64,000 bases of DNA from Chitinophagales bacterium (GCA_038326325.1 JBBQJW010000017.1:2009-66008); one strand, 5' to 3'; positions 5,201 through 61,953 are shown, counted from the stretch's first letter. Translations and numbers: made by a program. The notes: a model not told the origin generated them from the letters alone.

Positions 5201-5338
5201 ACTGAGCGATTGCGCATCATCAACGAAATGATTCAGGCGGTAAAAAACGGAGCGCAGACTCAGGAGTTGCGACTCAACTTCAATACACTTTATGGCTGCG
5301 ATACTTTGTGCGATGGTTCTCAAATTTCCAGACAGTAA
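2288..5338 (+). CDS. large secreted amidohydrolase family protein
   Basis: Has an N-terminal signal peptide. Metal-dependent amidohydrolase motifs include IIDEHSHIA, HG.ANNIGG and a C-terminal GSIKVGKDADVVLW. Confidence 0.8.
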   Translation: MKKILFLLLSLFTFHLLSFTSFAQQTFPVNGTHDLREGNFAFTHATIAVDYKTMLSDATLLIRDGKIEAVGNNVSIPTGVTAIDCKGKFIYPSFIDLYSNYGVSSIENKSDGNRRGPQFLSNKSGAYNWNQAVMPEVNAADNFSVDEKQSESYRSLGFGAMLVQRFDGIMRGTGAVVLAGNESDNEMLLNEKAASCYSFSKGTSTQDYPSSLMGSIALLRQTFYDSQWYKAGGDKEEKNISLDALNNQLSLPQIFQVDNDLSILRADKIGDEFGIKFIVKGAGDEYQRLDEIKSTGDALIVPINFPKPYNVTDPDDAEIIPLSALMNWEQAPANLSRIDKAGITFSITKQGCGDDDFWKNLRKAIEYGLNKSDALKALTYTPAQLSNEWNELGSLEKGKLANFIICSDSIFNEENIIYQNWVKGKAYQVNDEKISSLKGEYSFTLNRMSDVKLTIENPSSNNGVLQFHDSTKSDVKFSLNDNLISLNFSMPNDSTKQLYRVNGFVEGGNFSGKGLDPNGKEVVWTATRSGDVQAKKDSSKNKNEKPVFGKVVYPFDGYGCDTLPKQETVLFKNATVWTNETDSILLNTDVLISNGKIQQIGKNISAPAGARIIDATNKFLTSGIIDEHSHIAISQGVNEGTQSVTAEVRIGDVVNSEDIDIYRNLAGGVVCSHLLHGSANNIGGQTQLIKLRWGYAPEQMKFAGWTGFIKFALGENVKQSNWGDYNTSRFPQTRMGVEQNLFDAFIRAKDYELKWNTYNNASHSSTKNKTVTAEILRRDLELDALVEILNGKRFITCHSYVQSEINMLMHVADSMHFQMNTFTHILEGYKVADKMKAHGVYASTFSDWWAYKYEVYDAIPYNSAILTKVGVVTAVNSDDAEMARRLNQEAAKSIKYGGLTEMQAWKLCTLNPAKMLHVDDKIGSIKVGKDADVVLWNANPLSVYAKPEYTFVDGVCFFSLQSDLQKRDFIRTERLRIINEMIQAVKNGAQTQELRLNFNTLYGCDTLCDGSQISRQ

Positions 5339-5351
5339 AAAATATAACGAC

Positions 5352-6647
5352 ATGAAAAAAATATTCTCATTACTTCTCTCTCTTTTCGTTTTCAGTGTTA
5401 CATACGCGCAAACAATTCCTGTTGCACCGCCGCAGGATTCAATCATCATTCTGATGAATGGCATTGCCCATTTAGGAAATGGTGAAGTGATTGAAAATTC
5501 CATTATCGAAATTGTGAAAGGAAAAATTGCAATGATTGGTGATGCGCGAACAATCCGATTAGAAAAATCAAATGCAAAAATCATAAACATCTATGGCAAG
5601 CATGTGTATCCCGGATTGATTGCGTGTAACAGTAATTTAGGACTGAATGAAATTGAAGCGGCTCGCGCCACACGCGATGCGAACGAGGTTGGTGATTTCA
5701 ATCCGAACATCAGAAGCATCATCGCATACAACACAGATTCAAAAGTGATCGCGACTGTTCGCTCCAATGGAATTTTGTTGGCGCAGGTTGTTCCGCAGGG
5801 CGGAATTATTTCAGGTTCATCTTCTGTTATGCAACTCGACGCGTGGAATTGGGAGGACGCTGCTTACAAAACCGACGAAGGAATTCATCTCAACTGGCCC
5901 TCGTACTTCACCGCGCATTTTGACAATCCCGATGGCGGAACAGTTGGCTTGAATGAAAAATACGTGGAGCAGGTTCAGAACATTCGAAATTTTTTCGATG
6001 AAGCGAAAGCGTATTCACAAACTGTTACACACGAAAACACGAACCTGAAGTTCGAAGCGATGCGCGAATTGTTTTCCGGGAAGAAAATTTTTTTCATTCA
6101 CGCGGATGGCGTGAAAGAAATTACCGGGGCGGTGCTTTTCGCAAAATCTTATAACATGCGATGCGTGATAGTTGGTGGTAGCGACGCATGGAAATGCACT
6201 GATATTTTAGTCGCTAATCATGTGTCGGTGATACTCGGTAGAATTCAATCGCTGCCAGGTTCAACGGATGATGATTATGATTTGCCCTACAAAACTCCGG
6301 CGCTCTTGAAAAAAGCGGGAGTAGATTTTTGTTTGAGCATGGATGGTTTCTGGCAGCAGCGCAATCTTTCTTTTCTTGGCGGAGAAGCGATTGCTTACGG
6401 AGAAATAAGTAAGGAAGAAGCGCTGCGATACATCACTTCAAATGCTGCGCGCATTCTTGGAATTGATAGTGTAACAGGAACTCTAGAATCAGGGAAGGAC
6501 GCGAACATTATAGTGAGCGATGGAGATATTCTCGACATGAAAACCAACAATATCATTTACGCTTTCATACAAGGTCGGGAAATAAATCTCGACGACAAAC
6601 AAAAAGACTTGTATGAAGTTTATAAAGCGAAGTATGGAATAAAATAA
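5352..6647 (+). CDS. secreted amidohydrolase family protein
   Basis: Signal peptide MKKIFSLLLSLFVFSVTYAQ and a C-terminal GTLESGKDANIIV motif. The start is set at the ATG at 5352, because the track start at 5292 overlaps the upstream gene. Confidence 0.75.
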   Translation: MKKIFSLLLSLFVFSVTYAQTIPVAPPQDSIIILMNGIAHLGNGEVIENSIIEIVKGKIAMIGDARTIRLEKSNAKIINIYGKHVYPGLIACNSNLGLNEIEAARATRDANEVGDFNPNIRSIIAYNTDSKVIATVRSNGILLAQVVPQGGIISGSSSVMQLDAWNWEDAAYKTDEGIHLNWPSYFTAHFDNPDGGTVGLNEKYVEQVQNIRNFFDEAKAYSQTVTHENTNLKFEAMRELFSGKKIFFIHADGVKEITGAVLFAKSYNMRCVIVGGSDAWKCTDILVANHVSVILGRIQSLPGSTDDDYDLPYKTPALLKKAGVDFCLSMDGFWQQRNLSFLGGEAIAYGEISKEEALRYITSNAARILGIDSVTGTLESGKDANIIVSDGDILDMKTNNIIYAFIQGREINLDDKQKDLYEVYKAKYGIK

Positions 6648-8228: not shown

Positions 8229-8445
8229 GGAATTCTTTTTTACAAAGATAAATTTTTACCACAGAAAAGTTTTTTTACCACAGAGTCAAAAGAGTATTGC
8301 ACAGAGTAGCACAGAAAGAAAACTAGGTGAAACTCTTGATTTTACTCTGAGAAACTCTGTGGTTTGAAGCAAAAGGAACTCTATGAAAAAACTCTGTGTT
8401 ACTCCGTAGTGAAGACCTAAATTTGCAGAAGTAAATTATAAAACA

Positions 8446-8772
8446 ATGATACAGATTAGTGAACACGCGAAAAGTAAAGTGACTGAAATTCTGAAGACCG
8501 AAGGAAAAGATGATTCGTACTTCGTTCGGGTTTCTGTTGTGGGCGGCGGTTGCAGTGGTTTGAGTTACAAAATGGAATTTGACCACGACCTGAAAAAAGA
8601 AGACCAGGTTTTTGAAGATAAAGGAATGAAACTCGTTACCGACCTCCGCAGTTTTTTATATCTGTGTGGTACCACTCTCGACCATAGCGACGGACTGAAC
8701 GGAAAGGGTTTTCATTTCGTGAACCCGAATGCTACTCGCACCTGCGCTTGCGGGGAGAGTTTTGCGGTTTAA
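8446..8772 (+). CDS. erpA: iron-sulfur cluster insertion protein (HesB/IscA/ErpA family)
   Basis: Has GGGCSGLSY and a C-terminal CACGESF cysteine signature. Confidence 0.9.
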   Translation: MIQISEHAKSKVTEILKTEGKDDSYFVRVSVVGGGCSGLSYKMEFDHDLKKEDQVFEDKGMKLVTDLRSFLYLCGTTLDHSDGLNGKGFHFVNPNATRTCACGESFAV

Positions 8773-9258: not shown

Positions 9259-9306
9259 ATTAAAACCGCACAGTCCCCTGCAGGAGACTGTGCGGGGACG
9301 AAAAAA
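9259..9306 (-). terminator. hairpin repeat copy 2, probable kmo terminator
   Basis: A 10-bp stem CCGCACAGTC / GACTGTGCGG. On the minus strand it is followed by TTTTAATTCTTTTT. Confidence 0.55.
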
Positions 9307-9528
9307 CTGGTTACAGCTTTTTCGCTATGATAGCGCTATAGGATTAGTAATTGTTACGGTGTAACGGAATCACGCTTTCGATATAGTGTTGCCTGCGTGA
9401 GTGATTGTAGTGGAAATCATTTTTTGTGATTACACAAAAAATATTGAAACGAAAAGCACGACAGCATTTTTTTGAATACAAAAAAATGGTGGCACGCCCG
9501 ACACTTCGACAAGCTAAGTGTTACAGTG

Positions 9529-11375: not shown

Positions 11376-12639
11376 TCTTTTCCAGAACATCTCCCACTCG
11401 ATAAACATCTTCAAACGAATTATACAATGGTATAGGCGACATGCGAATAACATTTGGTTCGCGCCAATCGGCGATTACTCCGTGTGAGGCGAGTTGCTCG
11501 AAAATTTTCTTTCCATCTTTTTTCGCGATGAGCGATAATTGACACCCGCGTTCAGAACTGTTTTTTGGCGTGATGATTTTTAATTCGTGCTCAGGATATT
11601 TCTGATTGAAATGGTTAAGTATAAATTCTAAGTAAGTTGTTAGTTGTTGGCTTTTAGTAATTAGTTTTTGAATCCCCGCTTCCGAAAAAATTTCCAATGA
11701 TGCTCTGTGAATTGCCATTGCGAAAACAGGCGCATTACTCACCTGCCATGCGCCTGCTCCTGCCTGCGGATGAAATCCTTTCTTCATTTGAAACCGAGTG
11801 GTCTCATCATTTCCCCACCAGCCAGCGAAGCGTGGTAAATCATTTTTACCACTGTGTTTTTCGTGAACGAAAATTCCGCCTACTCCTCCGGCGCCACTGT
11901 TCAGATATTTATAAGAACACCAGCAAGCGAAATCAATATTCCAGTCGTGTAGTTTCAAGTCAACATTTCCGGCGGCGTGCGCCAAATCAAAACCGACTGT
12001 TACACCGGTTTCGTGACCGGCTTCGGTAATTTTTTTCAAGTCGAAATATTGTCCGCTGAGGTAATTGACTCCTCCGAATAAAATCAACGCGAGTTCATTT
12101 TTATTTTTTTCTATCTGTTCGAGAATGTCTTCTGTTCGAAGCGTGAATTCATTTTCTCTTGGAGAAATTTCAATGATGTCTATTTCAGGATTTCCGCCAT
12201 GAAATTTCACCTGGGTTTCAATCGCGTATTGATCTGATGGAAAAGCGTTCGCTTCCATCATGATTTTTTTTCTCTTTCCTTCCGGACGAAAAAAAGAAAC
12301 CATGAGCATGTGAAGATTCGCCGTAAGTGAATTCATCGCTACTACTTCTTCTTCCTTCGCCCCCACAATTTCCGCCAATTGTTTTCTTCCGAAATGATGA
12401 TAAGGAAACCACGGATTCTTGGCGTCGAAGTGTCCCTCCACACCGAGTTTTTCCCAATCCAAAAATTCCTGCTCAACAAAACTTCTCGCGCTCTTCGGTA
12501 AAAGCCCGAGTGAATTTCCGCAGAGATAAACTGCATCGTTTCCATTGTGTTTAGGAATGTGAAACCGCTCACGGAATTTTTTCAGCGTGTCGGCTTCATC
12601 CAATTGCCGTGCGAAGGATAAACTGTTTTCGAATTTCAT
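11365..12639 (-). CDS. kynU: kynureninase (PLP-dependent)
   Basis: The 424-aa ORF has CGNSLGL, FDLAHA.GN and WCSYKYLN.G.G motifs. Confidence 0.9.
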   Translation of the reverse strand: MKFENSLSFARQLDEADTLKKFRERFHIPKHNGNDAVYLCGNSLGLLPKSARSFVEQEFLDWEKLGVEGHFDAKNPWFPYHHFGRKQLAEIVGAKEEEVVAMNSLTANLHMLMVSFFRPEGKRKKIMMEANAFPSDQYAIETQVKFHGGNPEIDIIEISPRENEFTLRTEDILEQIEKNKNELALILFGGVNYLSGQYFDLKKITEAGHETGVTVGFDLAHAAGNVDLKLHDWNIDFACWCSYKYLNSGAGGVGGIFVHEKHSGKNDLPRFAGWWGNDETTRFQMKKGFHPQAGAGAWQVSNAPVFAMAIHRASLEIFSEAGIQKLITKSQQLTTYLEFILNHFNQKYPEHELKIITPKNSSERGCQLSLIAKKDGKKIFEQLASHGVIADWREPNVIRMSPIPLYNSFEDVYRVGDVLEKIER

Positions 12640-12751: not shown

Positions 12752-13774
12752 ATGGCATTACACGGTAAAATAATTTTTCGCGCTGATGGCGGGCCGAACC
12801 TCGGAATGAATCATTTGGTTCGTTGTGCAGCTTTAGCGGAAATGTTGCGCGAGCATTATGAATGCGTGCTGACGATTCGCTCTCCTAATCCGACCGCCTT
12901 GCAAATCATTGAAGGAGTTTTTCATTCCATTATTCCTTTGACCGTTACAGACCATTTTGATGGCGACGAATTGATTCCGCATTTACACGAAGGTGATATA
13001 GTGGTGATGGATGGGTTTCAATTTCACACCGCTTATCAGCAAAAAATTCACGCGAACAATAAACTTATTTGCATCGACGATTTGCACCAACATCATTTTG
13101 TCGCCGATGCCATTATTAATCACGCCGAAGGAATTTTGCCCGCTGATTATTCAACGGAAGAGTACACGCGTTTTTATCTCGGTTCTCGATACGCGATGAT
13201 TCGCGAACCATTTATTAACGCCACTCCGGAAAATCATGATTCGCAAAAATCAAATCGAGCGATGATTTGTATTGGAGGAAATGATATTCATAACACGACA
13301 TTAAAAGTGTTACAGTCATTAATTGACACAAAAACCGTAAATGAAATTGAATTGGTGGTGGGCAAACTAAATCCCAATCTCGATCTGATTAATGAATTTA
13401 TTCATTCGCAAAAGGAAATGAAAATTATGTTGTGTATGAATCTTCCAGTAAGTGAATTGTGCGATCTCATGAAGACTTCGCGGGTAATGATTTGTTCGGC
13501 GAATAATATTCTGCTCGAAGCGTGCGCGGCGGGTATGAAAATTATTTCAGGAATTACGCACGACGCTCAGCAAGGAGTGTTACAGGGGTTGGTCGCGAAA
13601 GGCGCGGTGAATAGTTGCGGAAATTTTTTAACCGCCTCGCCCGAAGAATTAAAATCGCGCTTCGAATTATTTCTGAATAACGATACTCATACTGTTACAC
13701 AACAGACCGCGCAACGCGAATTGATTGACGGGCTTTCGCCTGAAAGGTTGTTCGAGATATTCAGTAAGTTGTAA
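12752..13774 (+). CDS. PseG-like UDP-sugar hydrolase / GT28-type glycosyltransferase family protein
   Basis: The N-terminus IIFRADGGPNLGMNHLVRCAALAEML resembles PseG. The start is moved to the ATG at 12752. Confidence 0.45.
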   Translation: MALHGKIIFRADGGPNLGMNHLVRCAALAEMLREHYECVLTIRSPNPTALQIIEGVFHSIIPLTVTDHFDGDELIPHLHEGDIVVMDGFQFHTAYQQKIHANNKLICIDDLHQHHFVADAIINHAEGILPADYSTEEYTRFYLGSRYAMIREPFINATPENHDSQKSNRAMICIGGNDIHNTTLKVLQSLIDTKTVNEIELVVGKLNPNLDLINEFIHSQKEMKIMLCMNLPVSELCDLMKTSRVMICSANNILLEACAAGMKIISGITHDAQQGVLQGLVAKGAVNSCGNFLTASPEELKSRFELFLNNDTHTVTQQTAQRELIDGLSPERLFEIFSKL

Positions 13775-13823
13775 AACTTATTTCAAGAAAGAATTTATTT
13801 TGTCTTTCTAAAATTTCACACCT

Positions 13824-14594
13824 GTGGGTTTATTTGATTTTCTAAAAAAGAAAGAAGCAAAAGAAGAAAGCTCTATGATGAATGTTTCTTCAAATATTGT
13901 CAAAGAGGAAAAACTTATTTCATCTTTATATACAAGATACAAAGCAGGAGATGTAAACTCTGAGTATATCAATGAATTAATTTTTGAAAATGAGGGAGAA
14001 AAAAATAGTTTGATAAATGAAGTCAGGACACATCTTGAAAAATTAAAACAGGAAGATATTCTTTTCGGTCTCTCAGATATTATTTCGCAGCGCGATGAGT
14101 TTGATTCTTATCATCTCCTAACATGGATTAGATTCAGTGTTTTAGAGACTGATGGAAAAATTTCACTCTCCAATCCTGAGATTCAAAATTTTGGGTTACA
14201 AAACATAAAAAGCTCTTCAGATTTTTTCATTGATAGAATTAATCGAAAAATTGATTTGGGGAGAAGTGATTTTGAAAACGACATTGAAACTACATTAAAG
14301 ATTATTCGTTCTGATATTCACGAAGACCATTCCTATTTAAGGATAAGCGGCTACTTTAATATCGGACAAATTTATTTTAACCTAAAAAACAATAATAAGG
14401 CTGAGGAGTTTTTTAATCTCCTGAAAACAGAAAAATCCTCACTTGCTCCCTCAACTGTCGCTGAGTTTTGTAAAGAAATTGGAATTTTATATCAAACAAT
14501 AAATGATAAATCAAAAGCGCTTGACTGGTTTAATTATGGTTTGACTTTAAATCCAAAATTGTCTGTAAAAAAAATTATTAAATCTTTGGAATAA
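13824..14594 (+). CDS. hypothetical protein with a C-terminal TPR-like repeat
   Basis: GTG-start ORF that is AT-rich. The C-terminus (GQIYFNLKNNNKAEEFF...ALDWFNYGLTLNP) is TPR-like. Confidence 0.5.
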   Translation: MGLFDFLKKKEAKEESSMMNVSSNIVKEEKLISSLYTRYKAGDVNSEYINELIFENEGEKNSLINEVRTHLEKLKQEDILFGLSDIISQRDEFDSYHLLTWIRFSVLETDGKISLSNPEIQNFGLQNIKSSSDFFIDRINRKIDLGRSDFENDIETTLKIIRSDIHEDHSYLRISGYFNIGQIYFNLKNNNKAEEFFNLLKTEKSSLAPSTVAEFCKEIGILYQTINDKSKALDWFNYGLTLNPKLSVKKIIKSLE

Positions 14595-26558: not shown

Positions 26559-27467
26559 TTAAACCTTCTCCATCACCACGCTAACCTCCACACTGCCGCC
26601 AAGTGGTATTTTTACATTAGGCACTTTAGCGGGTTTAAAATCAGGATGAGTAAATACAAACGAATAAACACCACCCTTAAATTTACTGATTTGATAAACA
26701 CCTGTTACATCTGTCGTGGTCTTCAAATCAGTATTTGTTCCAATCATTTCCACCTGCATTTTAAAGATGCCGTCTCCTGTAACACTATCCGTTGCTTTTC
26801 CTTTTACCGTGGTATGTGTTTGTCCTGAATCTATCACCTCCTTAGCTGCAAAATAAGTATCATAAAAAACAGGTTCACTGCTGAGCAGTGTTTCAATAAT
26901 AGGAGTCATTTCATTTTTTATTAAATCCATTCCTTGTTTATTCAGCACCGGAATAAGATTCGTTTGCGCCATCCGGTCAGCAACCGCCTCCCTCGGTTGA
27001 TCTACCGAACCTTTATAATTAGTTATCGCTGTTTGAAAAGTAGTAAGCACCGGAGCGGTTATTCCATAATCAGCAAGCAAAAGAATCAATCCGTTGGCGC
27101 GGTCGTGCATAAACTGGGCAGTCTGTGGCAGCAAACCATCATCTAATCTTTTCAACTTCGATTTAGCAATACTTACCTCGTCAAAAAGAACAGCATCACC
27201 AATCACATGAGCGTATGCTTTCATGGCCGATGCAACCGAAAAAGTTTGGTTCACCAATCCGTCATGCAATTGTTGTTTGTTAACCGTTACACCCTTTATG
27301 TTTTTTCGCTGCGCAAGGTCTGCACTTTCTATGGCGGCGACCACTGCGAGCAATGCTGTTTGCGCAACTCCGAGTGCAGGTCGCAGAGCTACGACAGCGG
27401 CGTTCGAAGCCAGAACTAAAAGTACTGTTCCGAACATGTTCAACCGGTTTTCAAAATACTGTTTCAT
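26559..27467 (-). CDS. hypothetical protein: helical N-terminal domain + C-terminal CarboxypepD_reg-like beta-sandwich (paralog of 55219-56166)
   Basis: The C-terminus is GKATDSVTGDGIFKMQVEMIG...TTDVTGVYQISKFKGGVYSFVFTHPDFKP. The start is set at MKQYFENR (27467). Confidence 0.6.
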   Translation of the reverse strand: MKQYFENRLNMFGTVLLVLASNAAVVALRPALGVAQTALLAVVAAIESADLAQRKNIKGVTVNKQQLHDGLVNQTFSVASAMKAYAHVIGDAVLFDEVSIAKSKLKRLDDGLLPQTAQFMHDRANGLILLLADYGITAPVLTTFQTAITNYKGSVDQPREAVADRMAQTNLIPVLNKQGMDLIKNEMTPIIETLLSSEPVFYDTYFAAKEVIDSGQTHTTVKGKATDSVTGDGIFKMQVEMIGTNTDLKTTTDVTGVYQISKFKGGVYSFVFTHPDFKPAKVPNVKIPLGGSVEVSVVMEKV

Positions 27468-27598
27468 GATTTTTGGTTTTTGTGATGAATGAGTTTTTAA
27501 TGTCAGACCAAAACTACATTCACCAAAACCCTTTGCTGGCTTCACTCGCACAGAATCGCATTAGATTGAATAGATACTCATTAGGGTGAATGGATTTT

Positions 27599-28081
27599 CT
27601 AATCTTCTTCTTTTTTTTCTGTTGATTTATGATTGTGATAGATGTGTAGATAAACTCTCACCACTTGCTCGTATGTTTCTGAAACAGGTAAATATTTTCT
27701 GTTTTCCAAATGAACTCCATCCGGTTCCATATCATACTGAATCATAAATTCCGGGTTGAACATAAACGAATTATGATTTCGTATTAATCCCATCTGTGTT
27801 AAATCATTTTCAAGTTCACCAATGGTTTCATTGCGGCGATACTTCACATTTTTATGAAGTGTTACAGCATAAATGTTTGTTCCGTGCCCCTCGCTTTCAG
27901 CATAAATAATATCTTTTCCCTTTATAAAAACATAACCGCCGTCCGGGTGAATCACTGAAAATTTTTGAAAGCTGTTCTGGTGAGATTGCTTTTCAAATTG
28001 TTGCCTCAATAAAAGAGTTGCCTTCATAACCGAAGCGCGTTTAATTTGCTTCACTAAAGCAGCCCAGAACGAAAGAGGCAT
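27599..28081 (-). CDS. stand-alone LytTR DNA-binding domain protein (no receiver domain)
   Basis: IIYAESEGHGTNIYAV...ETIGELENDL...LIRNHNSFMFNPEFMIQYD...LENRKYLPVSETY follows the LytTR pattern. An alternative start exists at 28027. Confidence 0.7.
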   Translation of the reverse strand: MPLSFWAALVKQIKRASVMKATLLLRQQFEKQSHQNSFQKFSVIHPDGGYVFIKGKDIIYAESEGHGTNIYAVTLHKNVKYRRNETIGELENDLTQMGLIRNHNSFMFNPEFMIQYDMEPDGVHLENRKYLPVSETYEQVVRVYLHIYHNHKSTEKKEED

Positions 28082-54380: not shown

Positions 54381-54752
54381 GCGCATGGTTTTGAGGGGGA
54401 CTGCGTATATCAATTTACTACACTGCGTATGTGAATTTACTGCGTTGCGTATTTTGATTTACGGCACTGCGTATTTGTATTTACTTCGGTGTGTATGCTC
54501 ATTAACCCCATTGCGTATATCTATTAACGCTATTGTGTAAAGCTCTTACTGTAACAGCGTATTATCATTTACTGCATGGCGTATTGTCGTTAATTGCATG
54601 GCGTATTGTTATTTACTATTGTGCGTATGATTCTTGACCGTATTGCGCATGTGATTGAGTGATTGTTTCTATTCAAATTAGTGCATAAGGTGTATACTAA
54701 TGTTTTCAGGGGCATATTTTCCTGACTGAATGTGTATTGTACGAATTCGTAC
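54381..54752 (+). repeat. array of about 16 degenerate tandem repeats with a strict 22-bp period
   Basis: G(C/T)G(T/C)AT anchors fall every 22 bp from 54381 to 54645 (54381, 54403, 54425, and so on). They continue roughly in phase at 54690, 54712 and 54732. The consensus is GCGTATnnnnATTTACTnnnnT. Confidence 0.85.
54739..54752. promoter_or_regulatory. perfect 14-bp palindrome GTACGAATTCGTAC, candidate operator
   Basis: It lies between the end of the repeat array and the start of the HTH gene. Confidence 0.35.
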
Positions 54753-56238: not shown

Positions 56239-56314
56239 TTTTATTAACTGTTACAGTTCGGTTTTAAACCAGAATTTTTAATTGCACTCGAGGCGACAGG
56301 CCGGACAGAGCTGA

Positions 56315-56401
56315 TTTTTAAAACCTTCGTTTATCCAACTGCCTTATGTTGGATAAACGAAATGATTTTTAGTTTTACTTCGTTTAATAACATGTTAGCT
56401 G
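56315..56401 (+). repeat. right-arm-only copy (two tandem degenerate right arms) of the hairpin site
   Basis: TTTTTAAAACCTTCGTTTATCC..CTTATG and TTTTTAGTTTTACTTCGTTTAATAACATGTTAGCTG both align to the right arm at 57077-57115. The copy includes a perfect 12-bp hairpin (56328-56359). Confidence 0.65.
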
Positions 56402-56483
56402 CAATGGTAACGCTCCGATTGAACGGCACTGCTACTTGAAACTGATTGCAAGAAATTAACTTTGACAAAACAACTTTGAAGAC

Positions 56484-56882
56484 ATGACAAATACGATAAC
56501 AAGACCAGCAGACAAACAAATCTTTGAAGGGATAATTGCTGACTATTATTTAGATGATGGTATTTTAGTTTCACTTTCAAAAAATCCCAAACGGACAGTT
56601 GAAAATATTACAAGCAATGTTGCTTTAGTAAAAAGTATTACCGACAACAAACCTGTTCCGCTTTTGATTTATCTTTCTGACTCTCCTATTCCAGACAAAG
56701 TGACACGAAAATTTGCGACTGAACAGTTACCAATAATTTATTCTGCAATGGCAATGGTTTCCAAACCTGGACTTTCAAAATTCATTATGAATATTTTGTT
56801 CAGTTTAAAGACACCACCGATACCAATGAAAAGTTTTACTGACGATAAAGCTGCAAAAGAATGGTTAGGACAATATTTATAA
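56484..56882 (+). CDS. SpoIIAA-like / STAS-domain-like hypothetical protein (cargo 1)
   Basis: 132 aa, ending ...MKSFTDDKAAKEWLGQYL, which is typical of STAS-like DUFs. Tentative. Confidence 0.45.
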   Translation: MTNTITRPADKQIFEGIIADYYLDDGILVSLSKNPKRTVENITSNVALVKSITDNKPVPLLIYLSDSPIPDKVTRKFATEQLPIIYSAMAMVSKPGLSKFIMNILFSLKTPPIPMKSFTDDKAAKEWLGQYL

Positions 56883-56963
56883 AAAGAATTAAGACAACAC
56901 AACTTCTAACAAACATTCGTGCTGACATCGGAGGACACATCTTCGGACGAACAGCACCACATG

Positions 56964-57115
56964 CAGCTAACATGAAGATAAATGCAAATTTTTAAAAGAA
57001 GGGCTTTGTACGGTAATCAAACAGTTGTGCATCTAACAAACATTGTAGGTTATCGAACAGTTGTGCTTCTAAACCCTTCTTTTAAAAACTTCATTTATCC
57101 CTTATGCGTTAGCTG
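56964..57115 (+). repeat. complete 152-bp imperfect palindrome with attC-like box layout
   Basis: The paired elements are CAGCTAAC / GTTAGCTG (8 bp), ATAAATG / CATTTAT (7 bp) and TTTTTAAAAGAAGGG / CCCTTCTTTTAAAAA (15 bp). The 70-nt centre carries the 17-nt direct repeat AACAGTTGTGCWTCTAA twice. Confidence 0.8.
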
Positions 57116-57187
57116 TAATGCTATGGCGACAGTGCTAACTTGAAACTTTCTGCAAGAAACGAACAGACAAAACCTTTAAACAGAACA

Positions 57188-57625
57188 ATGTTTGACGAAC
57201 TAAACAAATACGAACAACACGACCATTTCTTTTTAAAACCGCAAGACAGTTTGAGAGAAGTTTGTAACGCACCGACAAATAAAAGTGGTGTTTACATAGT
57301 TTACGCTTTGAAGAACGGAAAGGTAGAACTCATTTATATCGGCTGTTCAGGAAAAATACAAGCAGACGGTTCTATGTTCGTCAGAAAAGCGGGACTTGGC
57401 GGTATTAAAGACAGAATTGTAAACGGACACCAATTTGGAAAAATACCGAGACGAAAATCTTGGATAGCACAAATTGAAAAAGAAAATATTGAGGCGTTAG
57501 ACATTTATTGGTATTCAACACACAATCAAAAATATTCCGACTGTCCACGAATTTTGGAAAACAAATTATTACAGAAACATTTAGACATTTACGGACGACT
57601 ACCAAAGTGGAACAAGGAGTTATAA
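57188..57625 (+). CDS. GIY-YIG nuclease domain protein (cargo 2a)
   Basis: GVYIVYALKNGKVELIYIGCSG (GIY-N10-YIG), with a downstream Arg (IKDRIVNGH), Glu (RILENKL) and WN. The start is set at the ATG at 57188, because the track TTG start lies in the conserved leader. Confidence 0.65.
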   Translation: MFDELNKYEQHDHFFLKPQDSLREVCNAPTNKSGVYIVYALKNGKVELIYIGCSGKIQADGSMFVRKAGLGGIKDRIVNGHQFGKIPRRKSWIAQIEKENIEALDIYWYSTHNQKYSDCPRILENKLLQKHLDIYGRLPKWNKEL

Positions 57626-57630
57626 GAAAT

Positions 57631-58767
57631 ATGAAAGCAGCTTTTCACTACGCAGTTAAAGTAAAACTCATTCGCTACGAAACGAAAGAGGATATTAATT
57701 TCATTGACTTCAATAAAGTTTTTGAAAATGAAAATCCCATACTTGCAAGACAAGAGGCGTTCAAGGAATATGAGGAGTGGATAAAAGATTTATATACAGG
57801 AATTGGAACGACAGCAAAATATTCGACAGACAAGCAAGCAAGAATTGATTTACAAAAATTTACAACTCCATCTGGTAAACACAATGTTCAGATAGATGAA
57901 AATGAAATTGATTTTGGCAACTCTTTTGGTTACGGTATCGGAGTTTGTTTCATTATTGACAAGCCTTTTCATCAAAGTGGGGTAAGTGAAGACAGGTATG
58001 ATAAAGCAGGTGATGAACATTTAATTCACGGTATCGGGACAACAGAAAATTACAATAACCCTTTAGAAATAAGTGATGCACTCCTTAGCGAAATTCTTTA
58101 CTACGAACATTTCAAATACGATACTGGAAATTTTGAAAGACGAACCAACTTTTACGATTGGGACATTGACGATGTAGGAGAAATACATTTTTTAGAAACG
58201 CCTTTTGATTGGACAGGTTTAGATGTTAAACCAGAGAGCGAAACAAAAGAAGTAGTAGAACAAAATCCAAGACAACGCATTGAAGAAATGATTGCAAACG
58301 GAGAAGGCAATCAAGTTGAATTTAAACCAGCACTTCTTTACAACTTCAAAACTGACAAAGCAGGAATAAGTATAAAAGCAAAAATTGCAACAGCAATTTG
58401 TGCTTTTCTAAATGCTAACGGTGGGTTTTTATTTATCGGGTTAGACGATGACGGAAGACCACAAGGTTTAGAGAGGGATTTTAGTTTAGCAAACGATAAA
58501 AAGCCAAGAGATTATTTTCACGGAGAGTTTGACCAAATGATTGAGCATTTTCTTTCATTCGCAATTAAAGCAAATGTTATTGGAGAGTTTTACCGATTAG
58601 AAGGGAAAGATATTTTTATTGTTGCAGTTGAGCCAAGTAAAAACAGAGCAATATTTCTCAAAGGACAAAACGGAAAAGAATTTTGGGTTCGTGGCAACCA
58701 CGGCAACAGACAACTTACAGACATGGAAGAATTAGCGAACTATTGCATTGACAGATGGGGAAACTAA
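57631..58767 (+). CDS. protein with unknown N-terminal domain and C-terminal AlbA_2 (Schlafen-like) domain (cargo 2b)
   Basis: EGNQVEFKPALL...IATAICAFLNANGGFLFIGLDDDGRPQGL matches the AlbA_2 signature. The ATG lies 5 nt after the GIY-YIG stop. Confidence 0.65.
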   Translation: MKAAFHYAVKVKLIRYETKEDINFIDFNKVFENENPILARQEAFKEYEEWIKDLYTGIGTTAKYSTDKQARIDLQKFTTPSGKHNVQIDENEIDFGNSFGYGIGVCFIIDKPFHQSGVSEDRYDKAGDEHLIHGIGTTENYNNPLEISDALLSEILYYEHFKYDTGNFERRTNFYDWDIDDVGEIHFLETPFDWTGLDVKPESETKEVVEQNPRQRIEEMIANGEGNQVEFKPALLYNFKTDKAGISIKAKIATAICAFLNANGGFLFIGLDDDGRPQGLERDFSLANDKKPRDYFHGEFDQMIEHFLSFAIKANVIGEFYRLEGKDIFIVAVEPSKNRAIFLKGQNGKEFWVRGNHGNRQLTDMEELANYCIDRWGN

Positions 58768-58811
58768 CACGACACGAAATTGCAATGAATGTAAATCGCT
58801 TCGTGGACAGA

Positions 58812-58858
58812 ACAGCACTATAGCTAAGATGCAGATAAATGCAAATTTTAAAATGAAG
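58812..58858 (+). repeat. left-arm-only copy of the hairpin site
   Basis: ACAGCACTATAGCTAAGATGCAGATAAATGCAAATTTTAAAATGAAG aligns to 56951-57000. No right arm follows. Confidence 0.7.
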
Positions 58859-58865
58859 TTTGTGT

Positions 58866-58892
58866 GATGCCCCCGGCATCAAGATTTTTTTT
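58866..58892 (+). terminator. rho-independent terminator
   Basis: GATGCC-ccc-GGCATC followed 4 nt later by TTTTTTTT. Confidence 0.55.
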
Positions 58893-59144
58893 GGTTTTGT
58901 TTTTCTATAAACCTTTCATCCCTCGAGGATGATTTTTTATTTGGTATTTTTTTCTACCAATATTTTGTTCCGATGGAACAGGTGTAACAGATTTATTTTA
59001 AAGGACAGAAAGGACATGAAGGGCATGAAGGACGGGTGGGCAAGTGAGACTGTTATAGATTGCTTCAAAAATTGATTAAAATTTTTTCGCAATGACACCG
59101 TGAAAAAAAGATGAACAGCTGTAAGATGCTTAGAAGCCGGGTAG

Positions 59145-59204
59145 CTTATCTCCCCAAATAAACCATCAAAACAGAAACATCACTTGGGTTTACTCCGTTG
59201 ATGT
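59145..59204 (-). pseudogene. detached copy of the last 18 codons of mnmG
   Basis: The minus-strand translation INGVNPSDVSVLMVYLGR* compares with the genuine end ISGVNPSDVSVLMVYLGR* (60016-60072). I count about 8 nucleotide differences, all but one synonymous. Confidence 0.75.
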
Positions 59205-60015
59205 ATTTAACTTTTCCAAAGTTCCAAACTTTGGAAAATTTTTTTGTCGCAACAGGAAAAGTTTTCGTTCAAAAAAGTTCAAATAGTTTTATTCTTGATA
59301 GAAATTATTAATAGTGGACTTGCTTTTTCCAAATTCAACTTATCACATTTTTAATCATGCGAATGGAGATGAAAATATTTTCAGGAATGACGAGAACTAT
59401 CGGTTCTTTCTTGAAAAATTCAAATTTCATATTCATCCGGTTGCTTCAGTCATTGCTTATTGTCTTCTGCCAAATCATTTTCACTTCATGGTTAAAATTA
59501 GAACCGAAAATGAATTGTCGGCTACATTTAAAAATTTTCACGAGTTGAAAAGTGACGAAGAGCAATCGAAATTTATTTCAAAACAGTTTTCAAATCTTTT
59601 CAGCTCTTACACGCAATCGTTTAACAAAGTCAATAATCGAAGGGGTTCTTTATTTGTAAAAAATTTTAAGCGGGAGCTGATTCGAACCGATGAGCAGTTT
59701 CAAAATACATTTCTTTACATTCAACTGAATGCTGTGAAGCATGGATTTGTTTTGCATGAGATGGAGTGGAAATGGAGTTCATGGATGGCCTATTATTCTT
59801 TCTCAAAATCTGAAAGTCCTGAATCGGTGGTTACTTCACTTGATATTGAATATGCGATTTCAAAATTTGAAAGCATCTGGAACTTGATGTACTGTCACGA
59901 TTTGCGTCGCGAAAAAATACTTTCGCTGAAGTCGCTTGAGTCGGAATAATTTTTATCGTATAAATTAACTTTTCCAAAGTTTGGAACTTTGGAAAAGTTT
60001 TTTTACGGCGAAAGT
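59205..60015 (+). mobile_element. RAYT / IS200-like Y1 transposase unit flanked by inverted hairpins
   Basis: The hairpins CTTTTCCAAAGTTCCAAACTTTGGAAAA (59211-59238) and CTTTTCCAAAGTTTGGAACTTTGGAAAAG (59969-59997) are reverse complements of each other and bracket the transposase gene. Confidence 0.75.
59314..59949 (+). CDS. REP-associated tyrosine transposase-like protein (Y1 HUH, IS200/IS605 TnpA superfamily)
   Basis: YHIFNHANGDENIFRNDENYRFFL, the HUH motif LLPNHFHFMV and the Tyr motif YIQLNAVKHG. GTG start. Confidence 0.8.
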   Translation: MDLLFPNSTYHIFNHANGDENIFRNDENYRFFLEKFKFHIHPVASVIAYCLLPNHFHFMVKIRTENELSATFKNFHELKSDEEQSKFISKQFSNLFSSYTQSFNKVNNRRGSLFVKNFKRELIRTDEQFQNTFLYIQLNAVKHGFVLHEMEWKWSSWMAYYSFSKSESPESVVTSLDIEYAISKFESIWNLMYCHDLRREKILSLKSLESE

Positions 60016-61953
60016 TTAGCGTCCCAAATAAACCATCAACACCGATACATCACTTGGATTTACACCGCTGATGCGGCTTGCCTGCCCCAGTGTGCGGGGT
60101 TTGTGCTTCGTGAGTTTTTCGCGAGCTTCGAGCGAGAGCGAATTTATTTTCGCATATTCAAAATTTTCGGGCACCGGAACATATTCGAGGCGGTTCATCT
60201 TCTCCACTATTTCTTTTTCCTTCTCAATATAACCTTCGTACTTCATAAGTATTTCCGCCTGCTCAATGCTGTCTTCCATTTTGCCGGAAAGCAATTCTTT
60301 CACGGAAGCGATTTTTTCTCTGATATCGTTCATTTCAATTTGCGGGCGAGAGAGCAACTGAAGCAATTTTGTTTTTTGTTTTATCTCGCTTGAATCCTGT
60401 TCGGTGAGAATGGCATTTACATCATCAGGTGTTACACTTTCCTTTTTGAAGAAATCCATAATCACTTTCGTTTCTTCTATTTTTTTATTTACGAGATCCA
60501 ATCTTTCATCACTCGCCAGTCCAAGTTTGTGAGCGAGCAGGGTCAGGCGGATATCAGCGTTATCCTGTCGCAATAAAATACGGAACTCGGCGCGGCTGGT
60601 GAACATTCGATACGGTTCGTTGGTGCCCTTGGTAATTAAATCGTCAATCAACACGCCGATGTATGCCTCGTCGCGAGAGAGAATAAATTCCGGGTTGTCA
60701 TTTATTTTCTGGTGAGCATTGATGCCCGCCATTATTCCCTGACACGCGGCTTCTTCGTAACCCGTAGTGCCGTTGATTTGCCCCGCATGAAATAAATTTT
60801 CTACCACCCGCGTTTCCAGATTTGTTTTCAGTTGGTGCGGCGGAAAGAAATCGTATTCAATCGCGTAACCCGGACGAAACATGCGCACATTTTCGAAACC
60901 GGGAATCAGTTGCATCGCCTTGTACTGAACTTCTTCGGGCAACGAGGTGCTGAACCCATTGACATAAATTTCTATGGTGTCCCAACCTTCGGGTTCAACA
61001 AATAACTGGTGTCGCGTTTTATCGGCGAAGCGATTTATTTTATCTTCAATACTCGGACAGTAGCGCGGACCTAATCCCTGAATTCTCCCCTGAAACATGG
61101 GGCTTTGTTCGAATCCTGTTTTCAGAATATCATGAACCTCAGGGCTTGTGTAGGTGATGTAACAACTTTTCTGCCGCCTCGAGACCTCACCCCTAACCCC
61201 TCTCTCAAGGAGAGGGGAACTGTTGCTATTAATTTTCTCGTCTGTATTTTCGAATGCGGATGTTCCGGGTTTGTATGAAAATTTTCCCGGCGCCTCATCT
61301 CCTTTCTGTTCTTCCATCAAAGAATAATTCAAGCTTCTTCCATCAACGCGCGGAGGAGTTCCTGTTTTCATCCTTCCTGATTCCAGCCCGAGTGAAAGCA
61401 ATTGTTCGGTAATTCCGCTCGACGCTTTCTCCGCCATGCGACCACCGCCAAATTGTTTTTCGCCAATGTGAATGATGCCGTTGAGAAATGTTCCGTTCGT
61501 GAGTACAACGGCTTTCGATTTTATTTCCATTCCCATTCCGGTGCGCACTCCACAAACTCTTCCGTCTTTAATTAATAAGCCGCTCACCATGTCCTGCCAG
61601 AAATCCACATTGGGAGTTTGCTCGAGCATTTCTCTCCACTCCTTCGCGAATAATAATCTGTCGCTTTGCGCGCGCGGGCTCCACATCGCTGGACCCTTCG
61701 AACGATTCAGCATTCTGAATTGAATCATGGTGCGGTCGGTTACAATTCCTGAGTAACCACCGAGCGCATCTATCTCTCGAACGATTTGTCCCTTCGCTAC
61801 GCCACCCATTGCGGGATTGCAACTCATTTGCGCAATCGTTTGCATGTTCATGGTTACGAGCATGACTTTGCTGCCGAGGTTAGCTGCTGCTGCTGCTGCC
61901 TCGCAACCGGCATGACCGGCGCCTACTACTATTATGTCGTATTCAGGAAACAC
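60016..61953 (-). CDS. mnmG: tRNA uridine 5-carboxymethylaminomethyl modification enzyme MnmG (GidA)
   Basis: VVGAGHAGCEAA, MSCNPA.GG, GPRYCPSIEDK and GQINGTTGYEEAA. It contains an extra segment of about 24 aa (see findings). Confidence 0.95.
   Translation of the reverse strand: MFPEYDIIVVGAGHAGCEAAAAAANLGSKVMLVTMNMQTIAQMSCNPAMGGVAKGQIVREIDALGGYSGIVTDRTMIQFRMLNRSKGPAMWSPRAQSDRLLFAKEWREMLEQTPNVDFWQDMVSGLLIKDGRVCGVRTGMGMEIKSKAVVLTNGTFLNGIIHIGEKQFGGGRMAEKASSGITEQLLSLGLESGRMKTGTPPRVDGRSLNYSLMEEQKGDEAPGKFSYKPGTSAFENTDEKINSNSSPLLERGVRGEVSRRQKSCYITYTSPEVHDILKTGFEQSPMFQGRIQGLGPRYCPSIEDKINRFADKTRHQLFVEPEGWDTIEIYVNGFSTSLPEEVQYKAMQLIPGFENVRMFRPGYAIEYDFFPPHQLKTNLETRVVENLFHAGQINGTTGYEEAACQGIMAGINAHQKINDNPEFILSRDEAYIGVLIDDLITKGTNEPYRMFTSRAEFRILLRQDNADIRLTLLAHKLGLASDERLDLVNKKIEETKVIMDFFKKESVTPDDVNAILTEQDSSEIKQKTKLLQLLSRPQIEMNDIREKIASVKELLSGKMEDSIEQAEILMKYEGYIEKEKEIVEKMNRLEYVPVPENFEYAKINSLSLEAREKLTKHKPRTLGQASRISGVNPSDVSVLMVYLGR
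61197..61217. repeat. perfect 8-bp-stem hairpin CCCCTCTC-tcaag-GAGAGGGG inside the mnmG coding sequence
   Basis: Seen directly in the sequence. It encodes ...SPLLERGVRGEV... within the extra segment. Confidence 0.8.

Follow-up and report, generated by a model that had tools for sequence, protein, structure and literature searches.

An orphan pair of gene cassettes with attC-like hairpin sites in a Chitinophagales genome as a probable fragment of an integron-like system of Bacteroidota

Integrons and attC site clusters without an integron-integrase (CALINs) consist of co-oriented cassettes, promoter-poor or with short leaders, that lie between imperfect hairpin sites. Each site is built of RYYYAAC-like and GTTRRRY-like outer boxes, unpaired spacers, an inner stem and a variable centre; the 5′ core of a cassette complements the inverse core at its own 3′ end, the recombinase is of the Xer/IntI clade, and orphan clusters without an enzyme occur. 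Classical attC sites are 57-141 nt long. Smaller modules without their own enzyme gene are also known: the pdif modules on Acinetobacter plasmids, as well as mobile insertion cassettes (MICs), carry small cargo between inverted recombination or transposition sites. Among Bacteroidota, integrons proper are rare (PMC9024848). In gut Bacteroidales, rAID-1 arrays, which are defined by at least 44% identity to BF9343_RS08045 and by immunity-gene cargo, combine an XerD-like recombinase with short genes of one orientation and intergenic repeats like those of integrons (bioRxiv 10.1101/471110); their biogenesis and assembly mechanism was still undefined in 2025, and accounts of the integron-like rAID arrays go no further than gene content and ‘repetitive intergenic sequences' (PMC12247911). 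Here we analysed a stretch of 64,000 nucleotides from a Chitinophagales bacterium (GCA_038326325.1 JBBQJW010000017.1:2009-66008; ‘the window' below, with positions counted from its first letter), in which a tract at 56255-58892 holds three copies of a structured repeat around two small sets of genes. With a probability of roughly 0.75, this tract is an orphan two-cassette fragment of a Bacteroidota integron-like gene-cassette system, comparable to a CALIN. The hairpin repeat is a real recombination-type site, and the copy in the window is a decayed example rather than an active platform.

The integron features listed above, the site length apart, recur in the tract or in the arrays related to it, the end-to-end complementarity being read here from sequence. 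The system is integron-like in its working but departs from integrons in two defining respects, the IntI domain and the site length. With rAID-1 it shares the phylum and the array architecture; the tract has at least two co-directional short genes, conserved intergenic motifs and a low GC content (35.5%, versus 38% for the window), a combination that is weak evidence by itself. It differs from rAID-1 in its hosts, which are environmental Chitinophagaceae-type and other non-Bacteroidales lineages, in its mixed cargo and, for the window copy, in lacking a recombinase. pdif modules and MICs are similar as small enzyme-less cargo modules bounded by inverted sites, yet the former use 28-bp XerC/D sites common to modules, the latter have terminal inverted repeats (TIRs) and target duplications, and neither has long hairpins with covarying stems or end-to-end complementarity of cassettes.

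The middle copy of the repeat is complete and comprises the following elements.

56956-57125, + strand: complete attC-like site, from its folds and a covariance-model match (model R1, below)
56962-56971, + strand: R″ extension and core
56972-56977, + strand: left spacer
56977-57003, + strand: left arm
57004-57073, + strand: centre, with 25-nt direct repeats
57074-57099, + strand: right arm
57100-57107, + strand: right spacer
57108-57121, + strand: R′

It forms a hairpin of 150 nt, with outer boxes CAGCTAAC (56964-56971) and GTTAGCTG (57108-57115), inner boxes ATAAATG and CATTTAT, and a 15-bp stem that pairs 56989-57003 with 57074-57088, all as described in an earlier note made from this sequence alone. 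The folding check proposed there was carried out: the DNA fold (−28.1 kcal mol−1; z −4.5) was equalled by none of 200 shuffles, and the RNA fold also stood apart from shuffles (z −5.8). The repeat copies are therefore real, the middle hairpin being significant and the outer copies each sharing one arm with it. Two details of that description required correction. The spacers are where they had been placed but are partly paired rather than unpaired, so that the helix reaches ~45 bp with bulges; the direct repeat in the 70-nt centre is present but is 25 nt long (57012-57036 and 57048-57072; 88% identical) and not 17 nt, and was found in the window copy only among the copies compared of the same arm type (termed type A). 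The attC order of R″, spacer, L″, variable centre, L′, spacer and R′ in an imperfect hairpin, which the note had also recognized, spans 56956-57125, where the R boxes AGCTAAC and GTTAGCT are each one position off the integron consensus. Within the window the arm motif is confined to the tract, in three copies, and no family in Rfam 15 overlaps the repeats at the gathering or a permissive threshold.

The connection to a recombinase is made through the second cassette of the tract. Homologues of its AlbA_2 gene (~80% identical) were found in contigs L045-L052, always preceded by the same 145-aa GIY-YIG-like gene, and the DNA of cassette 2 is 81-83% identical to these contigs over ~1.63 kb (57135/57154-58777), from the leader to 10 nt beyond the stop codon. 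The contigs with this gene pair are of Chitinophagaceae type, and in L049-L051 the pair is one unit among co-oriented small genes with spacers of ~235-300 nt; the array in L045 begins with a 397-aa tyrosine recombinase (HMR92589.1). Of nine sites in L045 and L049, eight are 194-199 nt long and one 135 nt, and in their layout (arm type I) two complementary arms of 18 bp enclose a conserved centre, with 4 nt of spacer between ...AAC and the first arm and 6 nt between the second arm and GTT.... The arm helix in eight array sites is 97.8% paired, and in 12 of its 17 pairs both partners have changed; across the whole named structure 94.8% of cells are paired and 15 pairs are changed on both sides, none of 500 shuffles reached the observed pairing or covariation, and pairing fell to 26-43% in slid-partner controls. 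Every intergenic site in the recombinase-linked arrays with the same cargo is complete. The system as a whole carries mixed cargo: a DUF7793 protein, a peptidase, Crp-like regulators, DUF4304, a weak HEPN_AbiU2 match and the GIY-YIG-like gene with its AlbA_2 partner.

A covariance model (R1), for which the eight L045/L049 sites were the sole source, matched the window at 56956-57125 on the + strand over its full length (30.5 bits; E 1.4e-8), versus 9.7 bits on the minus strand and a window background of at most 11 bits. Moreover, R1 found sites in plasmid arrays of Chryseobacterium (E 2e-10 and 1e-8) and Rufibacter (E 9e-5 and 5e-4; site lengths ~60-75 nt), in both cases behind a homologous recombinase, the plasmid enzymes being 34-37% identical to that of L045 over 96% of length. 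The plasmid arrays L053 and L054 contain IS110-family transposase genes and L053 additionally a group II intron reverse transcriptase gene (inserts at 13272-14273 and 15738-17054 in L053 and at 15950-17008 in L054), on the strand opposite to the cassettes, an arrangement that may parallel the insertion of IS1111-attC elements and group IIC-attC introns in integrons. Crp/Fnr regulators are cassettes in L053, and are also found near leader copies in L009 and L034.

The position of the exchange is indicated by the cassette ends. In L045 and L049, the 12 nt after the GTT 5′ of a cassette are complementary to the 12 nt before the AAC 3′ of the same cassette: own-cassette R′ and R″ boxes match at 79 of 96 positions (42.8 for permuted pairs; 0 of 20,000), and at 97 of 120 once the two window cassettes are added (55.3; again 0 of 20,000). 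The neighbouring boxes that form the array hairpin match less well than own-cassette boxes, and rejoining a cassette's own ends stabilized the site in seven of seven cases tested; for cassette 1 of the window, the site of the circular form folds better than that of the array form. Own-end complementarity in the window is 8/12 for cassette 1 and 10/12 for cassette 2, with a match at the discriminating position in each, compared with 7-8/10 in the Rufibacter array. The ends of cassette 1, GTTAGCTGCA (56394) and TGCAGCTAAC (56962-56971), are complementary at 10 of 10 positions counting GTT, and those of cassette 2 are GTTAGCTGTAATGC (57108) and GCACTATAGCTAAG (58815). Such complementarity implies, as for integrons, a putative crossover at G|TT in the R′ box. 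At position 11, A is opposite C in 8 of 10 cassettes, with the same trend in the Rufibacter plasmid array; because A opposite C corresponds to a G·T wobble on the other strand, this is a hint that the bottom strand may be the folded substrate. The earlier view of the genes between the copies as cassettes is upheld, and the site resembles attC in behaviour as well as in layout.

The best profiles of the L045 recombinase are XerA/‘integron integrase' (NF040815), XerC, integron integrase and XerD, all below curated cut-offs (for TIGR02249, 174 bits versus 265; for PRK15417, 122 versus 435). It aligns to IntI4 (2a3v) in two pieces, skipping IntI4 residues ~205-246 that constitute the IntI-specific insertion, and unbroken to an archaeal XerC-like recombinase (PDB 4a8e). 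As judged by these alignments, it is an Xer/IntI-clade tyrosine recombinase without the IntI-specific insertion, of a family that we infer to act on the hairpin sites. Unlike integron integrases it thus lacks the insertion, carries a further N-terminal domain of ~115 residues and falls below the NCBIfam integron-integrase cut-offs, and its gene is co-directional with the cassettes. Also unlike integrons, the sites are 150-199 nt long with sequence-conserved centres (the 150 nt of the window site exceed the classical attC range), the R stem reaches ~15 bp with a fixed A·C mismatch, and several cassettes have conserved leaders. An adjacent IntI with the IntI-specific domain, which marks a strict integron, was found neither in the window nor in L045. 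In the window, no open reading frame (ORF) of at least 150 aa up to 52 kb, nor of at least 40 aa beyond, resembles a recombinase, and tblastn with the L045 enzyme returned nothing, which agrees with the absence of a visible integrase in the earlier note. As the tract has no recombinase at its head, nor one elsewhere in the window, it is an orphan fragment. Alignment of ‘left boundary' sequences with the region downstream of the L045 recombinase, where an attI-like region was looked for, yielded no more than weak similarity.

The complete system would thus be a co-oriented cassette array with a recombinase at its 5′ end. Each cassette would consist of the TT of a GTT... box (R′), a leader, one or two ORFs and a long hairpin site, the site being ordered as R″ (...AAC), spacer, left arm, conserved centre, right arm, a longer spacer and G. 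The recombinase would exchange strands at G|TT, and the excised cassette would be a circle, the 5′ tail of which pairs with its own R″ to close the stem of ~15 bp; the conserved A opposite C in this stem would be a G·T wobble on the other strand, as for a bottom-strand substrate. The circular junction predicted for cassette 1 is ...CCCTTATGCG|TTAGCTGCAATGG..., and the matching deletion would join 56394 to 57109.

The cassettes of the window and their cargo are as follows.

56394-56407, + strand: R′ box of cassette 1, GTTAGCTGCAATGG; crossover predicted between G56394 and T56395
56395-57108, + strand: cassette 1, with leader, DUF7793 gene and the complete attC-like site to G57108
56408-56483, + strand: leader of cassette 1, with palindrome CTTGAAACTGATTGCAAG at 56435-56452 and TAACTTTG at 56457-56464
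56484-56882, + strand: cargo 1, DUF7793 / SpoIIAA-like (STAS-fold) protein of 132 aa (Pfam PF25056, E 4.9e-16)
57109 to ~58869, + strand: cassette 2, with leader, GIY-YIG-like gene, AlbA_2 gene and truncated site
57188-57625, + strand: cargo 2a, 145-aa protein with GIY..YIG-like motifs and no profile match
57631-58767, + strand: cargo 2b, Schlafen/AlbA_2-domain protein of 378 aa (Pfam PF04326, E 2e-16)

The profile matches confirm the earlier assignments of cargo 1 as STAS-like and of AlbA_2 in cargo 2, while GIY-YIG is to be read as a motif-level label. DUF7793 has 2,696 homologues across Bacteroidota, many of them ~80% identical; exact look-ups of the window's own cargo proteins gave no record. 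The shared leaders before both cargo ORFs also stand, as their blocks are common in the 64 kb to the two cassettes only (0.08 matches expected); a leader 86% identical lies upstream of the DUF7793 orthologue in L034. The motif TAACTTTG would fit the Bacteroidetes −7 promoter consensus, TAnnTTTG. Both leaders carry an operator-like palindrome, CTTGAAA-N4-TTGCAAG (56435-56452 and 57139-57156), with variants in the leaders of L009, L010 and L034. A regulon role of this palindrome was considered and dropped, as it occurs only twice in the window and is absent upstream of DUF7793 in L036. With intact boxes on both sides, cassette 1 could potentially be excised in trans by a recombinase encoded elsewhere, whereas cassette 2, with its truncated site and mutated core, is probably fixed in place.

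The outer copies, which had been described as halves of the site, delimit the tract.

56315-56393, + strand: scrambled remnants of earlier sites at the left edge, from alignments and repeats
58815-58858, + strand: truncated terminal site (right copy), with left arm at 58835-58858, spacer ATGCAG and degenerate R″ GCACTATAGCTAAG
58865-58895, + strand: terminator-like hairpin and T run at the tract edge, directly after the truncated site

The right copy indeed has the left arm only: 58822-58858 matches that arm at 89%, and no centre, right arm or R′ was found downstream, where local alignment scores are at the shuffle mean. Its R″ core is mutated from AAC to AAG. For the left copy, right-arm sequence is present as stated (56316-56336; 90%), yet it is not a simple half, as it contains two partial right-arm copies, a left-arm-like box GGATAAACGAA and a perfect 14-bp palindrome, TTCGTTTATCCAAC / GTTGGATAAACGAA (56326-56339 / 56348-56361), the halves of which end in AAC and start with GTT. 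The left edge contains a collapsed site, in which a left-arm-like box is accompanied by the motif TTTTTAGTTTTACTTC, and mini-palindromes like TTATCCAAC..GGATAAC open the arrays in L001 and L049. R1 gave 10.9 bits on the left remnant (56320-56369) and 3.9 bits on the right copy. The right half represents the beginning of the site that belongs to cassette 2, cut past the left arm, and the left half consists of debris from one or two older sites before the R′ box of cassette 1. By eye, no core sequence is shared between the two outer junctions of the tract. Given this, the complete sites and G|TT signature in arrays and the change of AAC to AAG, erosion or truncation fits better, and the outer halves most likely arose in this way from the terminal hairpins of an orphan fragment.

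Further copies with different cargo, which the earlier note had named as a touchstone, do exist. The genome and metagenome scans used exact patterns, by which diverged copies will have been missed. Among species-representative genomes, they located type-A relatives in three Bacteroidota metagenome-assembled genomes (MAGs), at four other loci: full sites homologous to the middle site of the window in L009 and L010, and left-arm-only or collapsed copies in L001 and L004. L034 is a third contig of the MAG that contains L001 and L004; its DUF7793 gene is 91% identical to that of the window, and its peptidase gene has centre plus right arm upstream and left arm downstream. All type-A copies are co-oriented with genes, and the cargo differs each time. 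A metagenome scan with a 21-nt left-arm pattern gave 14 loci, all of them chance-level (21-32 nt), and three viral-contig scans together with blastn of a 246-nt unit against plasmids and phages gave nothing useful. Homology between the two DUF7793 loci extends only from about −50 to +12 around the ORF. The closest DUF7793 homologues outside the JBBRND01 MAG are in ordinary operons without sites, and the L034 gene is flanked by other repeat types; cargo 1 is therefore no guide to more type-A sites.

Other repeats were noted at these loci. L034 has a family of ~100-nt units ending in GTTGGCTGTAATGCC (6313-6415 and 8411-8515) and a second of ~75 nt downstream of genes (350-425, 6062-6163 and 11809-11884). 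The 5′ fragment of its TonB-dependent receptor gene is duplicated (6222-6254 versus 9301-9333), which suggests that cassettes were inserted at the gene start. In L009, a segment of ~750 bp is duplicated (2110-2850 and 5310-6060) downstream of two paralogous repeat proteins of the type IX secretion system (T9SS) type, each copy ending in a leader-only copy of the cassette 5′ motif.

Several observations weigh against an orphan cassette fragment. Only one type-I array, that of L045, is contig-linked to a recombinase, and no recombinase was seen in the other type-A loci L001, L004, L009, L010 and L034, nor in L049. The same cargo has unrelated arms (type A in the window, type I in L045 and L049), so that the site is not always inherited with the cargo. 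The DUF7793 and peptidase cassettes of L034 show, by eye, no complementarity of their own ends; whole-site folding energies have no consistent strand bias; and no recombination product, circle or empty site, was observed. Finally, four independent left-arm-only copies in several genomes have cut ends that fall, by eye, within ~20 nt just past the stem, and in L034 a 5′ half starts at GTAATC, roughly at the end point of the 3′ halves. Such clustering of terminal cuts would not be expected from simple erosion. In one variant, the system would be an integron analogue proper to Bacteroidota, worked by an Xer-type recombinase without the IntI insertion on hairpins of 150-200 nt, and orphan mini-arrays, instead of being debris, would arise at non-platform sites when a second reaction breaks and joins the 5′ part of the central loop. 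It would explain the clustered ends; we consider it unlikely.

The clustered cut points and the GTAATC start in L034 are also what would be expected if circular elements, each with one full site, had been inserted in tandem through a crossover at the site's centre (B-O-P′ / P-O-P′ / P-O-B′), the interpretation favoured in the earlier note. It also draws on the mutual complementarity of the two outer halves (80%), which is like that of the arms of one site, and on the layout of right half, cargo and left half that recurs in L034, L001 and L004. Several points speak against this interpretation, however: the window junctions have no common core, the recombinase-linked arrays contain complete sites only, with ends that indicate G|TT, and only the window copy has the 25-nt central repeat. 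Moreover, the ‘half' in L001 is probably complete but eroded, as suggested by an R″-like box at 1264-1272 and a near-complement ~190 nt downstream, and the flanking R′ and R″ of L034 are not complementary, so that its halves stem from two different sites. A central crossover is accordingly improbable.

That the hairpin is instead a terminator, an insulator or an RNA-processing site, which together with a promoter/operator leader forms an expression module spread by ordinary recombination, would accord with the operator-like palindrome and −7-like box in the leader, the leader-only copies upstream of Crp-like genes in L009 and L034, the co-orientation of all sites with genes and the terminator-like hairpins after half-sites. 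We regard it as very unlikely, since it has no Rfam match to point to and leaves unexplained both the end-to-end complementarity of cassettes and the association with tyrosine recombinases; the roles are not exclusive either, as cassettes may carry their own promoters.

Even less probable are two head-to-tail non-autonomous transposons with TIRs of ~40 bp and a transposase elsewhere, be they MICs or elements like miniature inverted-repeat transposable elements with passengers, which the earlier note had offered as its alternative. Inverted arm copies do bracket cargo in five independent units with no enzyme gene nearby, but no target-site duplication was seen at any unit when the flanks were read by eye, and the repeats are not terminal, as conserved sequence extends beyond them into the centre. 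Dispersed copies, also expected of such elements, are lacking in the window, and neither the end-to-end complementarity of covarying R′/R″ boxes nor the recombinase-headed arrays would be accounted for. REPIN-like hairpins, which also occur as doublets and decayed singlets, served by the HUH-type gene 450 bp downstream (59314-59949; similar to REP-associated tyrosine transposases (RAYTs), NF047646, E 5e-17, below cut-off) can practically be dismissed, as that gene belongs to a separate insertion of 813 bp between two copies of the mnmG 3′ end, no arm copies flank it, the repeat has three copies in 64 kb, and the other type-A loci have no such gene; a link between the RAYT-like gene and the repeats was rejected for the first of these reasons.

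The orphan cassette fragment lies in an acquired island. In contigs of relatives with MnmG homologues 87-88% identical, convergent mnmG and recO are separated by 5 bp or by a small toxin-antitoxin pair only, while the interval in the window is 5.6 kb; this interval check, suggested in the earlier note, thus supports its placement of the tract in a recO-mnmG island. The TGTWACA palindrome, with 90 copies in the window versus ~13 expected from base composition (~seven-fold), has none in 56255-58892, also as noted before. In the close relatives L026 and L027, the gap holds a pair of a 65-aa and a ParE-like protein (listed at 12001-12464 and 13264-13976), and a nucleotidyltransferase/HEPN pair next to recO is present or absent; such variable small modules mark the gap as a recurrent landing place for accessory modules.

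Other features of the surroundings were recorded. A second copy of the last ~60 nt of mnmG (~82%) lies 813 bp before the real end (59146-59205 and 60016-60075), with the RAYT-like gene between the two copies, and the segment looks like an insertion into the mnmG 3′ end by which the target was duplicated or replaced. Tandem repeats with a period of 22 nt but different consensus units (54400-54525 and 54557-54617) are found at the island's left edge, a short way downstream of recO. The 315-aa and 116-aa ORFs of the island showed no similarity to 26559-27551 and 27599-28081 when checked for paralogy. The only Rfam match of the window at the gathering threshold is a Flavo-1 RNA (RF01705, 58.3 bits) at 9386-9467.

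The broader family to which these arrays belong seems barely described outside Bacteroidales in the literature searched. The arrays and the tract supply sequence-level rules for a rAID-related system in environmental Bacteroidota and on plasmids, namely a hairpin site, a crossover predicted at G|TT, a closing stem of 15 bp in which one mismatch is fixed and a candidate recombinase family without the IntI domain, which make the mechanism directly testable and the arrays searchable. They also show that individual cassettes carrying defence-like cargo become stranded at chromosomal hot spots, recO-mnmG among them.

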